A stretch of 52,329 nt of DNA, from sequence record NC_048799.1. One strand, 5' to 3'. This document shows positions 28,644-37,146 of the stretch, in pieces. Source of the DNA: Escherichia phage Mangalitsa. A program made the position numbers and the translations under genes. Numbering within the stretch: the stretch's first letter is position 1; every line of letters begins with the position of its first letter. Under the pieces are notes generated by a model, which ran no database searches, was not told the origin of the DNA, and saw nothing but the letters and a program-made list of their open reading frames with translations.

Positions 28644-29962
28644 TGGCTTCCAAAGATAAAAAGAACAATTTAGCCGTAAAGGTTACAGACGGCCTTGAGA
28701 ACCTTGTAACAGGTTTAGGAGGCCAAGCGGATAAGTCTACTTTTAACCAGTGGACTTTCTCAAATAAGAACGCGAACTATCGCGAACTGATGAACCGCTT
28801 CCGTGAGGATTGGGTAAGCCAGAAGGTTTGCACTGTAATACCTCAAGATATGACGCGTAAGTGGCGGCATATTGATACTGAAGAGGGACGTAAAGCGGAT
28901 AAGAAACTTCGAATCCGTAAACTGTTCCGTGAAGCATATCAATGGGCCAGGCTGTACGGGACTTCATTTGTTCTGCTCGACCTGAAAGGGACGGGCAAAC
29001 TTGATACGCCATTACGTCTGGATAACTTGAAGACTGGATGTATTAAATCCATGAGAGTTATTGACCGCTCACGCTTATTTGCCGCAGGAACTATGGTTCT
29101 GGACCCTTTGAGTCCTCACTATGGTTTGCCAGAGTATTACACTTTGGCTGGATATCCCGGCTATATCCACTACACTCGTTTTCTTCGATTCGAGGGTACT
29201 GAACTCCCACTGTTCGAATTCCAACGTAACATGTGGTACTCTGATTCGGTACTTATTCCGTTGCTGAAAACGATTGACCAGTTTTACACAACTGCCGCTG
29301 CTGCTGCCAGCCTTGCTCAAGAGGCCACAATTGATGTGGTAACTGTCGAAGGTTTACAATCTCTGCTTACATCACCGGAAGGTGAAGCTGCTGTGATGAA
29401 ACGCTTCAAACTCATGAAGCTGGCAAAAAGTATTTATAATGTTTTAATTCTCGACAACACTGAGAAATATGACACCAAATCAATTGCACTATCTGGTGTG
29501 AAGGACTTGATTTGGGAATACTTGAAGATTGTAGCTGCTGCTGTAGGTATTCCGGCAACACGTTTCCTTTCTGCATCTCCAGACGGTATGAATGCTACGG
29601 GCGAATCTGACCTCGTAAACTATATCGACTTGTTGACTGGCTTGCAAACATCTGTCTTCGACCCTCGTTTAGATGTGGTAGACAAGATTGTTCAGGCGCA
29701 CTTTGGCATTGAAGAATACGACTATGAATGGTTGGACATCTTCCCTGAATCCAATGTTGAGAAAGCGAAGCGAGCCAAAGATTTGGCATTCGCTGTTGAC
29801 CTGTTGGTTAATAACGGAACCATAACAACCGAAGTTGCAAACGATGTAATGTTCCATGCAGGAGTGTTCGGAACATGTGACCTTGGTAAGCCAAATCCCA
29901 AACCACCAAACATTCAAAAGGGTAACGCAAGTGAAGCAAAGCCAAAACCTGGTTCAGCTTAA
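28643..29962 (+). CDS. portal protein
   Basis: 439-aa ORF between terminase and scaffold/capsid genes; call is positional. Confidence 0.6.
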   Translation: MASKDKKNNLAVKVTDGLENLVTGLGGQADKSTFNQWTFSNKNANYRELMNRFREDWVSQKVCTVIPQDMTRKWRHIDTEEGRKADKKLRIRKLFREAYQWARLYGTSFVLLDLKGTGKLDTPLRLDNLKTGCIKSMRVIDRSRLFAAGTMVLDPLSPHYGLPEYYTLAGYPGYIHYTRFLRFEGTELPLFEFQRNMWYSDSVLIPLLKTIDQFYTTAAAAASLAQEATIDVVTVEGLQSLLTSPEGEAAVMKRFKLMKLAKSIYNVLILDNTEKYDTKSIALSGVKDLIWEYLKIVAAAVGIPATRFLSASPDGMNATGESDLVNYIDLLTGLQTSVFDPRLDVVDKIVQAHFGIEEYDYEWLDIFPESNVEKAKRAKDLAFAVDLLVNNGTITTEVANDVMFHAGVFGTCDLGKPNPKPPNIQKGNASEAKPKPGSA

Positions 29963-30995
29963 CGACGAAGATACCGTAAGTGAAGTTGTCCTGTTAACGG
30001 ATAAAGCCACACTTACGACTCGTCGTTTACGTGACTCTGGTGAAATGATTGCAGAATGCACCATTGCTCGTACTGGCATCATGCTGTACAAAGCAAAAGA
30101 ATTAGGTGACATTGCCAAGCATTTGGACCCAGAATCTATTTGCCGTGTTCGCACCAAGCCGGAAGTATTATTTGATGAAGCAACCATCGAAGGTTGTCGC
30201 TCAATTCCGGTAACTATCGGTCATCCGAAAGATGATGTGAACATTAAGAACAACAAAGAGTTGCAGAAAGGCTTTATCGAAGGTCGTCCAGTTGCTGACG
30301 GTTCTTTCTTGGCTGCATCAATCGTTTTAAATGACGAGCAAGCCATTCGATTAGTTGATTCTGGCGTTGACCAAATCTCTTTAGGGCACAATGCAGAACT
30401 GGCAGTAAGCCAAGATGCAGATGCAGACTTTGATAAAGTTCGCATCATTCCTAACCACGCTGCTATTGTAGTTCGTGGTCGTGCTCAAACAACTCGTATC
30501 GGCGACTCTGGTGAAGAGATTGCCATCGTAGATAAAGCCACGTTTGATGTAGTTGAAGCAGAACGTGATGCTGCAATTGACAAGGTTGCTGTACTTGAGC
30601 AGAAACTAGCAGATGCTGAATCTGCACGCCTATCCGATGAAGCTATTCAGGCTGAGGTAGACAAGCGTGTGGTTGCTCGTACTGCACTGTTAATTGATGT
30701 TGCTCGCCTGGGTGACGAATTCTCACAACTGGACTTTGCTGGAAAGACTGATGCACAAGTTAAGTTGGCTGTAGTTAATAAGTTGCATGACAAGGACTTC
30801 AGCGATAAGAGTGAAGATTATATCTCTGCTCGTTTCGATGCAGCACTTGAAGACTGCGATTCCATTACTCTGGGTGATGCCCTGAACCAGTCTATGCAGT
30901 TCTCTGCTAAGAAGGCTGCTGAAGATAGCAAACCTAAAGTATCTATTTCAGACGAAGCAAACAAACGTCGTTTAGAACGCTTCAACTCTTTATAA
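29931..30995 (+). CDS. putative capsid scaffolding protein
   Basis: Position between portal and capsid genes; Ala/Glu-rich coiled-coil C-terminal half; start uncertain (GTG 29931 with AAAGGG RBS). Confidence 0.4.
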   Translation: MKQSQNLVQLNDEDTVSEVVLLTDKATLTTRRLRDSGEMIAECTIARTGIMLYKAKELGDIAKHLDPESICRVRTKPEVLFDEATIEGCRSIPVTIGHPKDDVNIKNNKELQKGFIEGRPVADGSFLAASIVLNDEQAIRLVDSGVDQISLGHNAELAVSQDADADFDKVRIIPNHAAIVVRGRAQTTRIGDSGEEIAIVDKATFDVVEAERDAAIDKVAVLEQKLADAESARLSDEAIQAEVDKRVVARTALLIDVARLGDEFSQLDFAGKTDAQVKLAVVNKLHDKDFSDKSEDYISARFDAALEDCDSITLGDALNQSMQFSAKKAAEDSKPKVSISDEANKRRLERFNSL

Positions 30996-31004
30996 GGTAA
31001 TACA

Positions 31005-31478
31005 ATGCCAAAACAAGATTGGTCTATCAACACTGGTGCAGCTTACGCAGGTGAGCAGTACGGTCTTGCTACCACTAACTCCCAGCGTCTGACCTACAAT
31101 GCCGAAGAAGAAATGGCAAACTTTGGTCTGGCCGTTATTCAAGGTACTGCTGACAATCAGGTTAAACCTGGTATTGAATCTGATGGTACTGTTCTGGGCA
31201 TTACTATGCGCCAGATTAACATCGAATCTGCTACCCGTCCTGGTGATGGCACTGTCGCTATCAAAGCTGGCTGGCCTCTGGGCGTTATGCTGTCTGGCCC
31301 AATCATGGTCAAACTGGTAACTGCAATCACCGATAAAGACATTGGTGTATCTGCCACTGGTCAATTTGGTGGTGTTGGCGCTGGTTATACTGCCGCTACC
31401 AACCTGACTGCACTTCGTTACCCTGCTTCCGCTGGTGATGTTATTCCGGTCATGGTTAACGTAGTCCCAAAGCCGTAA
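31005..31478 (+). CDS. putative head decoration or capsid accessory protein
   Basis: 157-aa, highly expressed codon usage, directly upstream of the major capsid gene in the lambda gpD position. Confidence 0.5.
   Translation: MPKQDWSINTGAAYAGEQYGLATTNSQRLTYNAEEEMANFGLAVIQGTADNQVKPGIESDGTVLGITMRQINIESATRPGDGTVAIKAGWPLGVMLSGPIMVKLVTAITDKDIGVSATGQFGGVGAGYTAATNLTALRYPASAGDVIPVMVNVVPKP
31466..31472 (+). other. -1 programmed ribosomal frameshift slippery heptamer C-CCA-AAG
   Basis: X-XXY-YYZ heptamer two codons before the stop of 31005..31478; the -1 frame is open from here to 31771. Confidence 0.5.
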
Positions 31479-31771
31479 CGCCACCTCCAGCACCTACAGT
31501 ATCTGCTGTAGCTGCGATTGTAACTGCGGACGCATCTTCTTCTGATGCCACCGTGACTGTAGATAAGCTGTTTACATTCGGCAACTCTACAGCAACGGAT
31601 TATGATTTCGCTGTTACTCCCGCTGTGACTGGTGTTTCTGTGGCGGCAAACGGCACTGTGACTGTCCTGAACGAAACAACCACTGCCATCTCTGCGACAA
31701 TTACGGCAACGAACAAGACAACCCCTAGCGTAACTGCAACTAAAGAAATCGCTATTACGCCGAAGCCTTAA
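31472..31771 (+). CDS. -1 frame extension encoding a Pro/Ala linker plus bacterial Ig-like (Big_2-like) domain
   Basis: -1 frame reads AVTPPPAPTVSAVAAIVTADASSSDATVTVDKLFTFGNSTATDYDFAVTPAVTGVSVAANGTVTV...; the ORF-track piece 31553..31771 has only a GTG start. Confidence 0.5.
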   Translation, partial: AVTPPPAPTVSAVAAIVTADASSSDATVTVDKLFTFGNSTATDYDFAVTPAVTGVSVAANGTVTVLNETTTAISATITATNKTTPSVTATKEIAITPKP

Positions 31772-31778
31772 TTGTACT

Positions 31779-31799
31779 GGCGCAATTAATAGTTGCGCC
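31779..31799 (+). other. hairpin GGCGCAA-N7-TTGCGCC between decoration and capsid genes
   Basis: Perfect 7-bp stem, no U-tract. Confidence 0.3.
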
Positions 31800-31825
31800 T
31801 AACCAAATAAAACGGATTAAATTAC

Positions 31826-32833
31826 ATGCCAAAGATGATTAAACTGGCCGACGGTTCTGAATTCGAACTGAACGACGCCATCGCTCGTATTCAGGATTCT
31901 GGTACTGTTCCCCTGAACGACGACGACGCAGTATTCTTCCAACGTCAGCTTGAGTTCATTGAAGCTCAAACTTACGACACCCTGTATCCTGAACTGGAAG
32001 CTCGTGCAGCTTTCGGCGTAGATACGACTGGCGGCCCTGGTGTTAACACCCTGACCTACCGTTCATACAACCATGTTGGTAAAGCACAGGTAATCAACGC
32101 TCGTGCAACCGACCTGCCGAAGTCCAGCATTTCTGGTAAAGAATACAGCGTAACTGTTAAGTCAGTTGGTACTGCATTCGACTACGACATTGACGAAGTT
32201 GCCGCTGCTGCTGTAACTGGTCTGCCGCTGGAAACTCGTAAAGCAAACGCTGCTATCCGTGGTTACGAGCAGTATGTAAACTCTGCTGCATGGTACGGCG
32301 ATGCTGCTAACGGCTTCGTTGGCTTCTTCGAAAACCCAGACATCACCAAAGCAACTGTTGCTCAGGGTGCTGGCGGTTCTACCGAGTGGGCCGAGAAGAC
32401 TCCGACCGAAGTTATTGCTGACCTGACTGCTGCTGTGTCTGCAATGTATGCTTCTACTCTGAAAATCATGCGCCCGGATGAAATCTGGATGCCTGTTGAG
32501 CATGAGCAGTACATCTTCAACACTGCACGTTCTGAGCAGTCTGACAAGACGATTGGTCAGTTCTTCATTGACAACAACCAGTTCATCAACTCCCGCGATA
32601 AAATCAAGGGTCTGAACGCAATCAAAGGTCACGGCGATGCTGGTTCTGATTGCTTCGTTGTTGTTTGCCGCAATGCAATGGGCAACCGTACTTTCCGTCT
32701 GCGTGAACCTCTGCCGCTGACCTGGCAACCGGTACAGCTTCATGGCCTGATTTATGAAGTACCTGGCCGTGGTCGTTTCGCTGGCTTCCAGACTATGTAT
32801 CCGGCTGCAATCAGCATCAACTCCGGCATCTAA
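31826..32833 (+). CDS. major capsid protein (lambda gpE-like)
   Basis: 335 aa, highly expressed codon usage, GGSTEW segment as in lambda E as recalled; position after the decoration gene. Confidence 0.65.
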   Translation: MPKMIKLADGSEFELNDAIARIQDSGTVPLNDDDAVFFQRQLEFIEAQTYDTLYPELEARAAFGVDTTGGPGVNTLTYRSYNHVGKAQVINARATDLPKSSISGKEYSVTVKSVGTAFDYDIDEVAAAAVTGLPLETRKANAAIRGYEQYVNSAAWYGDAANGFVGFFENPDITKATVAQGAGGSTEWAEKTPTEVIADLTAAVSAMYASTLKIMRPDEIWMPVEHEQYIFNTARSEQSDKTIGQFFIDNNQFINSRDKIKGLNAIKGHGDAGSDCFVVVCRNAMGNRTFRLREPLPLTWQPVQLHGLIYEVPGRGRFAGFQTMYPAAISINSGI

Positions 32834-36511: not shown

Positions 36512-36970
36512 ATGGCTTGTGAATTGCTACAACGTGAATTCACAAACTCCAAAGGTGAACCAGTGCTAGTCGTTGTTCGACAACTGTCGGCTTCGGCTGC
36601 ACTGTCTCTTCACGCGGAGTTGGTAAGCAAGATTGGCTCACGGGTATTTCCATTCATCGAAGGCAAATATAACTTCGCTGATATTATCTACCTGATGCAG
36701 CAAGTGGAGCATACCGTATTCACAGAACTATTCAAACGTGTTATCAGTATGCAGTCGTCTAAAGATGGTCAAGAAATCAAACCAGCTTTATATGATATGC
36801 AATTCAACGGCGAATTAATGTTATCTTGCCACGTCTTTGCATTTGTTCTTGAAGCAAACTTCCTTGATTTTTTCAAGCAAGGGCTCGAAATCAACGAACA
36901 GAGACGGTTGGAGGCGGAGGAAGCATCCAAGCTGGCAGAGCAGAAGAATTCGAGTCCGGAGACAGTTTAG
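36512..36970 (+). CDS. tail assembly chaperone (G-like)
   Basis: Immediately upstream of the tape measure gene; contains the slippery site T-TTT-TTC near its 3' end. Confidence 0.55.
   Translation: MACELLQREFTNSKGEPVLVVVRQLSASAALSLHAELVSKIGSRVFPFIEGKYNFADIIYLMQQVEHTVFTELFKRVISMQSSKDGQEIKPALYDMQFNGELMLSCHVFAFVLEANFLDFFKQGLEINEQRRLEAEEASKLAEQKNSSPETV
36868..36874 (+). other. -1 programmed frameshift slippery heptamer T-TTT-TTC
   Basis: Canonical X-XXY-YYZ in the chaperone frame; the -1 frame opens exactly here (stop TGA at 36865..36867) and runs to 37146. Confidence 0.55.
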
Positions 36971-37146
36971 TATCCCTGTTCCCAGACATAAAGTATTTTC
37001 TGCATCGTCCTATTATTGAAGATAGTTCCCTCTGTACTCTTCGTGAGTTGCAAGATGGAACTTATTCTTTAATAGATTTGTTGTTATTCCATGACATTCT
37101 CGATTTGCGTAAGAAACTCGAACCAGTAGAAGAAGACAATGGCTAA
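36874..37146 (+). CDS. -1 frame C-terminal extension of the tail assembly chaperone (GT-like fusion)
   Basis: Open -1 frame of about 90 codons with no start codon of its own, ending at TAA overlapping the tape-measure ATG. Confidence 0.5.
   Translation, partial: QARARNQRTETVGGGGSIQAGRAEEFESGDSLVSLFPDIKYFLHRPIIEDSSLCTLRELQDGTYSLIDLLLFHDILDLRKKLEPVEEDNG

Follow-up and report, generated by a model that had tools for sequence, protein, structure and literature searches.

Phages repeatedly use frameshifting to equip part of the copies of a virion protein with C-terminal immunoglobulin-like (Ig-like) domains, and such arrangements are recurrent and evolved independently (PMC5009743, PMC9022992). 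Described cases include gene 10A/10B of T3, the major head and tail proteins of Lactobacillus phage A2, Listeria phages A118, A500 and PSA, and gp17.1* of SPP1, in which a virion gene has a slip site close to its 3' end and yields a short major and a long minor product, the latter with a C-terminal Ig-like or FN3 domain. Of the -1 heptamers in E. coli, C_CCA_AAG is the most efficient, reaching 54% with the IS3 pseudoknot (PMC4066793; PMC5009743), and X_XXA_AAG sites rely on a shift-prone tRNA-Lys (PMC4066793, PMC5009743). Here we consider the sequence of Escherichia phage Mangalitsa (NC_048799.1), 52,329 nucleotides in length and hereafter called the window. The heptamer C_CCA_AAG at 31466..31472, near the end of the capsid cement (decoration) protein gene, very probably directs a programmed -1 ribosomal frameshift that produces a long cement-Ig isoform, as a first-pass annotation made from the sequence alone had proposed; the alternatives weighed below are unlikely even when taken together. 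That annotation had also pointed to frameshift-added Ig domains on capsid and tail proteins, and this is an established kind of arrangement. The new aspects are the cement protein as the carrier, the occurrence in Cleopatravirinae (no publication or annotation was found), and a single junction that appears to act as a conserved socket for domains of several types.

The window comes from a phiEcoM-GJ1-like coliphage, a myovirus (Chaseviridae, Cleopatravirinae, Carltongylesvirus-like); the closest nucleotide match to region 30990..31830 is phiEcoM-GJ1 (90.7%), and the window as a whole corresponds to IMG/VR contig UViG_2974545116_000001. The gene 31005..31478 encodes a capsid cement protein. Its product matches the Pfam family Phage_cement PF22758 (E 5.9e-16, 59.3 bits against the cut-off of 27) and PHROG 563 'virion structural protein' (E 9e-27). 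The AlphaFold2 model (mean predicted local distance difference test score, pLDDT, 86.6) was matched by Foldseek to Pam3 gp6 (8hdt_G, E 5e-6, template modelling score, TM, normalised by the target 0.66) and further to the cement proteins of T1, HFTV1, FCWL1, Sf11, TW1 and E217. Thus the Pfam and Foldseek matches agree with the earlier description of this gene product as a decoration-position protein.

The cement gene ends with ...GTA GTC CCA AAG CCG TAA, where CCA and AAG are codons of the 0-frame, that is, the heptamer is in the X_XXY_YYZ register. The -1 frame is open at 31460..31771, and the post-shift part comprises 99 codons, from GCC at 31472 to CCT, followed by TAA. The +1 frame at the heptamer is closed after 22 codons. 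Both the register of the heptamer near the stop and the 99 open codons had been noted in the first-pass annotation, and direct reading of the sequence bears them out. The string CCCAAAG occurs on the plus strand of the window only once, at this very place. However, there are ten in-frame X_XXY_YYZ sites per 2909 codon positions in nine structural genes, so that the heptamer by itself is unremarkable and the case rests on the comparison with relatives.

The locus was collected from GenBank phages, IMG/VR and public assemblies, giving 56 sources, 47 of them distinct at the DNA level (individual loci are denoted below by L with a number). A locus was considered extension-bearing if an open reading frame (ORF) of at least 48 codons in the -1 frame lay between the cement and capsid genes. 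The slip motif is present in all 36 distinct loci with the -1 extension, where the 0-frame stop follows it after zero or one codon (five in L033). It is present in none of the 11 loci without the -1 ORF, in which the capsid gene begins 15-89 nucleotides after the cement stop. For the first 43 loci (36/36 with the extension vs 0/7 without it) Fisher's exact test yields p=3e-8, with shared ancestry not corrected for; four further Nefertitivirinae/Shantouvirus loci, having neither extension nor motif, complete the set of 11. C_CCA_AAG itself, whose conservation in relatives had been suggested as a check of the frameshift, is identical in 30 of the 36 extension-bearing loci; the remaining motifs are C_CCA_AAA (one locus), G_GGA_AAA (one locus, from a relative 37% identical) and A_AAG only (four loci). 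This exceeds what the 0-frame protein needs (36/36 vs 0/11). Judging by these sequences, chance falls far short of explaining where the heptamer lies, how well it is conserved and how consistently it accompanies the -1 ORF.

The codon preceding CCA differs between relatives (GTC, GGC, GCC, CTC, ATC and TCC, encoding V, G, A, L, I and S), and in every case it ends in C. Several of these codons are rare in this phage (GTC 9%, CTC 9%, GCC 12%, TCC 14%). CCA and AAG are retained at the site, while elsewhere proline and lysine codons are mixed, CCA accounting for 33% and AAG for 50% of them, respectively. Since the third-base C is fixed despite the varying amino acid and the rarity of the codons, selection appears to act on the nucleotides or the RNA rather than on the protein.

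These observations bear on the possibility that the -1 ORF is a decaying, unexpressed remnant of a C-terminal domain that was once in frame and was cut off by an old one-nucleotide indel, the heptamer being a coincidence of a conserved Pro-Lys C-terminus. Such decay would agree with the complete loss of the -1 ORF in some relatives, with an internally deleted 52-codon version in Yersinia phage PYps3T, and with the fact that no in-frame fusion is known. However, the third-base C before CCA is conserved whatever the amino acid, and the frame relationship was kept while domains at the junction were exchanged and duplicated. Moreover, an unexpressed ORF would gather stops, while this one stays open, with the ratio of nonsynonymous to synonymous differences (pN/pS) of 0.24, across genera between which cement protein identity is only 37-90%. 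A mere remnant is thus very improbable.

Loci without the extension are themselves diverse. Their cement proteins range from 53% to 83% identity to that of the window, and the sequences thereby suggest that the extension was lost several times independently. The cement proteins of some of these relatives end with short in-frame Pro/Ala/Gly tails, ...VVPGTTPPAAGGGE in L035 (1360-1401) and ...SKGAATPGE in L034 (1354-1392). These tails resemble the trans-frame linker VVPK|AVTPPPAP and may be footprints of a linker fixed in frame after the loss of the domain. They hint that cement protein and linker normally form one polypeptide, but sequences of such low complexity cannot be given weight. In the above-mentioned phage PYps3T (L008:1356-1520) the central Ig strands are lost and C_CCA_AAG is kept; its short -1 ORF represents either an intermediate of recent decay or a tail that has become shorter.

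The coding constraint on the -1 ORF was estimated from an alignment of eleven relatives sharing the domain type of the window. The pN/pS ratio is 0.235 in the -1 frame, whereas the two alternative frames yield 1.6 and 2.0. For the 27 codons that separate the 0-frame stop from the earliest codon able to serve as a start in the window, the ratio is 0.239. By this measure the -1 ORF is under purifying selection, including the part upstream of any start codon. The earliest ATG, GTG or TTG in the -1 ORF is GTG at 31553, 29 codons past the heptamer and inside the Ig domain, and its best pairing with the anti-Shine-Dalgarno sequence is +0.6 kcal/mol, i.e. none. In relatives, start codons are scattered, not conserved, devoid of Shine-Dalgarno pairing, and arise from synonymous GTA/GTG changes; in L010, L027 and L028 there is no start codon for 52-81 codons. 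Thus annotators pick different starts or miss the -1 ORF altogether: the frameshift is annotated in none of the 26 extension-bearing records inspected, and the -1 ORF is either absent from them or listed as a small gene of its own whose start is arbitrary.

The downstream ORF could be just such a gene, encoding an 'Ig domain containing protein' and translated from its own internal GTG, TTG or non-canonical start. Indeed, several GenBank and RefSeq records contain coding sequences of 70-91 amino acids at this place (ST32 gp56, BSBP01 'Ig protein', Y2 gp67, Faunus, PYps23T), and gene callers applied to metagenomes do likewise. However, the annotated starts vary by genome owing to the same synonymous variation, the first start of the window lies within the domain and lacks Shine-Dalgarno pairing, some relatives have no start codon for 52-81 codons, as noted above, and the 27 codons before the first start are under equal purifying selection. 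A separate gene also leaves the co-presence of the heptamer and the ORF unexplained, and we regard it as improbable. Independent initiation of the -1 ORF was rejected on two grounds, the pN/pS ratio upstream of the starts and the lack of start conservation. The first-pass annotation, noting the lone GTG start without a ribosome-binding site, had likewise considered independent translation unlikely.

The frame could also be changed by another route, namely transcriptional slippage of RNA polymerase or termination followed by reinitiation at TAA. The conserved position of the stop, zero to one codon from the motif, could hint at a termination-linked event, for example slippage of the P-site tRNA-Lys with a stop codon waiting in the A site in lineages having AAG_TAA or AAG_TAG. 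However, no start codon is close enough to the stop for reinitiation, and the motif is a textbook heptamer for tandem slippage in the correct register. Transcriptional slippage requires homopolymers far longer than three bases and was rejected in view of the A-run of just three nucleotides. Altogether, routes of this kind are hardly probable, no more so than a decaying remnant, and tandem slippage of the ribosome on C_CCA_AAG is strongly preferred.

The four lineages with A_AAG only are Proteus phage Myduc (L011:1335-1706), L038, L039 and L040, with the motif situated directly before the stop or one codon upstream of it. From their sequences, they are natural candidates for single-tRNA slippage beside a stop codon.

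The extension starts with a Pro/Ala linker, at which the pLDDT of the AlphaFold2 model falls to 65 between two confident domains. In relatives the linker is kept as K(A/V)(V/T)(T/A)PP..., even when it is followed by a different domain. Modelled alone from 18 sequences, the extension has pLDDT 97.1, predicted TM score 0.85 and nine beta strands. The Foldseek matches of this model are the T5 tail tube protein pb6 (E 7e-4, TM 0.66), the phi29 capsid protein gp8 (TM 0.62), invasin, the Rib domain and Ig domains of Nup210, and the sequence matches PHROG 13745 'Ig domain containing protein' (E 2e-8). On the other hand, the 99-residue extension matches no Pfam family, Big_2 (PF02368) included, even at E<=10, and its remote homologues do not match Big_2 either. 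Thus the linker and the Ig-like fold of the originally described 'Pro/Ala linker followed by a Big_2-like Ig domain' stand, whereas assignment to the Big_2 family by sequence is not supported. As T5 pb6 is listed among Big_2-bearing proteins (PMC9022992), the modelled extension may be called Ig-like, and Big_2-like at the level of fold only.

The domain following the linker is not the same in all relatives. Once the common linker is removed, at least five groups of Ig-type domains unrelated in sequence can be distinguished among the extensions, all at the same junction of the slip site and the K-A/V-V/T-T/A-P-P linker. Among them are I-set/Ig_2-like domains (precomputed Pfam matches) and an Ig_3-like domain in Proteus phage Myduc, whose extension also has a weak match to a Hoc-like PHROG. 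In flopper (L018:1656-2249), JL1 (L047:871-1464) and SA91KD (L049:871-1464) the -1 ORF of 195 codons encodes two tandem Ig-like copies joined by a second linker, PKPPAPTV; the metagenomic ORF P0016 has the same layout.

No in-frame fusion of the cement and Ig domains was found among 85 close cement homologues, 12 extension homologues and 1.84 billion cluster representatives (exhaustive HMMER search). Cement homologues in the databases are 145-187 amino acids long and have no Ig domain. The absence of in-frame fusions suggests that full Ig occupancy is disfavoured.

The following mechanism may be proposed. Most ribosomes would read CCA AAG CCG TAA and release the cement protein of 157 amino acids (16.2 kDa). 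A minority would slip back by one base on C_CCA_AAG, with tRNA-Pro re-pairing from CCA to CCC and tRNA-Lys from AAG to AAA, and would continue with GCC GTA ACG CCA... The resulting long isoform of 255 amino acids (25.9 kDa) would consist of cement residues 1-156, the Pro/Ala linker and the C-terminal Ig-like domain. It would co-assemble with the 16.2-kDa protein so that the extension projects outward and Ig-like domains are displayed on the head in sub-stoichiometric numbers, their likely role being weak adhesion to carbohydrates of host or environmental surfaces. While the slip site, the open and constrained -1 ORF and its conservation across the family are read from the sequences, and the folds from confident models, the shift itself and its efficiency are inferred, as are the presence of the long isoform in virions and the role of the Ig domain. 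The predicted junction is K156|AVTPPPAP (...VVPK|AVTPPP..., the same as in the first-pass annotation), within the junction-spanning sequence ...VMVNVVPKAVTPPP... of the long isoform. Trypsin cuts exactly at K|A, and the predicted tryptic peptide AVTPPPAPTVSAVAAIVTADASSSDATVTVDK, from 31472..31552, is encoded upstream of any start codon.

The region downstream of the heptamer contains the local hairpin seen in the first-pass annotation, in which CTACAG at 31494..31499 pairs with CTGTAG at 31506..31511, with 17-21 nucleotides between the heptamer and the stem. It is kept in 14 genus-level sequences. However, the PTV...AVA codons dictate five of the seven core pairs. Two pairs are free of coding constraint, one of which is kept throughout (with one switch from A-U to C-G), while the other is broken in four of the 14 sequences. 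Other genera retain the heptamer but not the hairpin, RNAalifold applied to 15 relatives yields zero consensus pairs, and the post-heptamer region has no match in Rfam. The hairpin was therefore rejected as a demonstrated stimulator in view of its spacing, the coding-fixed pairs and the presence in one genus only, in agreement with the earlier opinion that it is too distant to be a confident one. A Shine-Dalgarno-like stimulator upstream of the heptamer was rejected as well: the nearest candidate, GGTGAT, lies about 31 nucleotides upstream, a spacing that is unsuitable, and encodes a conserved G-D pair. Frameshifting may be aided by the adjacent stop codon, which is conserved, or by an element that escaped detection.

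In the GenBank record of SA91KD, the post-heptamer hairpin is annotated as a rho-independent terminator and a sigma-70 promoter is placed inside the Ig ORF (L049:899-941, 989-1017). This annotation is not supported by the equivalent region of the window, which has no terminator-like site and only one weak promoter-like match at the level of chance.

Several points weigh against a programmed frameshift at this site. The relatives are not phylogenetically independent, and in the four A_AAG-only lineages the P-site codon (GCA, TTA or GTA) is not slippery, which makes a weaker signal. Neither a conserved 3' stimulatory structure nor an upstream Shine-Dalgarno-like element was detected, and in reporter assays heptamers devoid of stimulators give only 2-10 times the 0.055% background (PMC4066793), so that the frameshift yield could be very low. 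No fused cement-Ig homologue confirms the join. Finally, virion proteomics for Chaseviridae or the phiEcoM-GJ1 group was not found in the literature, nor was anything relevant on frameshifting or Ig-like domains in these phages.

Table. Features of the cement-Ig locus in the window
Feature	Position	Strand	Basis and remarks
Slippery heptamer C_CCA_AAG (proposed -1 shift site)	31466..31472	+	sequence; conservation in relatives
0-frame stop TAA of the short isoform	31476..31478	+	one sense codon (CCG) between heptamer and stop
Pro/Ala linker AVTPPPAP, -1 frame	31472..31495	+	residues 157-164 of the predicted long isoform; translation
Ig-like beta-sandwich domain, -1 frame	31496..31771, including stop TAA 31769..31771	+	residues ~165-255; AlphaFold2, Foldseek, PHROG
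Local RNA hairpin, 7-bp core CUACAGU/GCUGUAG and 3 outer pairs	31490..31515	+	RNAfold; probably not a stimulator
Capsid cement (decoration) protein gene	31005..31478	+	157 aa, 16.2 kDa short product; Pfam, PHROG, fold, gene position
Major capsid protein gene	31826..32833	+	Pfam Major_capside PF09950, E 7e-48; included as context, its product being bound by the cement protein

One tentative generalization, to which we give slightly less than even credence, is that in Cleopatravirinae the slip site and the K-A/V-V/T-T/A-P-P linker form a conserved socket on the C-terminus of the trimeric cement protein, into which unrelated Ig-type domains are swapped, duplicated or deleted by recombination, the low display copy number per capsid being set by the frameshift rather than by a promoter or gene dosage. 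If so, the absence of in-frame fusions would mean that full occupancy is selected against, for instance if three bulky domains per trimer are not tolerated, and the lineages with GCA, TTA or GTA before AAG would show that single-tRNA slippage beside a stop suffices in nature.

The frameshift would correct the annotation of a whole phage subfamily and would add a cement protein to the major capsid and tail proteins that receive Ig domains through frameshifting. An unusually clean natural comparison for co-evolution of a recoding site and a display domain is offered by relatives that have or lack the extension and by the five or more different domains at one junction. The phages concerned are lytic coliphages, Erwinia phages and Yersinia phages that are considered for biocontrol; the Ig domain may affect adsorption or surface retention, and a sub-stoichiometric display site on the capsid would be a ready position for engineering adhesins or tags.

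The cement gene is preceded by a DUF2213 protease/scaffold gene (29856..30995) and followed by the major capsid gene. The DUF2213 ORF as listed mechanically (379 amino acids) overlaps the portal gene by 107 nucleotides, whereas in relatives this gene is annotated with a later start and encodes 354-355 amino acids; its true start probably lies further downstream than 29856. The interval separating the Ig ORF from the capsid gene contains, at 31779..31799, a 9-bp hairpin (GGCGCAAUU/AGUUGCGCC) without a U-tract. Relatives devoid of the Ig ORF (L029, L034-L037) also have a hairpin between the cement and capsid genes, of unrelated sequence. This suggests a conserved structural element, e.g. a processing site, an mRNA stabiliser or a terminator of a phage RNA polymerase.

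Another candidate -1 frameshift site was observed in the gene 36512..36970, which occupies the position of a tail assembly chaperone between the tube gene and the tape-measure gene (1239 amino acids, start at 37139). This gene contains an in-frame T_TTT_TTC at 36868..36874; the -1 frame opens exactly at this heptamer and runs to 37146, 58 codons past the 0-frame stop. Region 36512..37146 is thus a probable second -1 frameshift of the classic G/GT arrangement.

Compared with known systems, the heptamer belongs to the same class as those of dnaX, IS911 and IS3, with the shift-prone tRNA-Lys(UUU) at AAG (PMC4066793, PMC5009743). However, the stimulators of those sites are defined: a Shine-Dalgarno-like element upstream, a hairpin or pseudoknot 5-9 nucleotides downstream, or both; none of these was detected here. 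The N-terminal 156 residues of the predicted long isoform match, by Pfam and fold, the proteins of the Phage_cement/TW1-Dec fold (Pam3 gp6, E217 gp24, XM1 gp53, TW1 Dec and those of T1 and HFTV1), none of which is reported to have a frameshift extension. Head fibre protein gp8.5 of phi29 likewise combines a cement-like capsid base with an outward appendage, and its base domain is a structural match (6qyy, E 7e-4); however, its appendage is an in-frame coiled-coil fibre on every subunit rather than a recoded Ig domain. Ig-like domains on the capsid surface, with a proposed role in weak adhesion, are also known in T4 Hoc, T5 pb10 and the N4 decoration proteins (PMC7602432), but these are products of separate genes with their own capsid-binding domains and fixed stoichiometry, and involve no recoding.

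The closest analogy is with T3, A2, the Listeria phages and SPP1, where the slip site is similarly placed near the 3' end of a virion gene and where a short major and a long minor product with a C-terminal Ig-like or FN3 domain correspond to those predicted here. The nearest in signal would be Lactobacillus phage A2, which has a site of the C_CCA_AAA type. Unlike these systems, in which the carrier is a major capsid or major tail protein, the carrier in Mangalitsa is a trimeric cement protein; no conserved downstream stimulator was found, and at least five domain types occur at one junction within a single subfamily.

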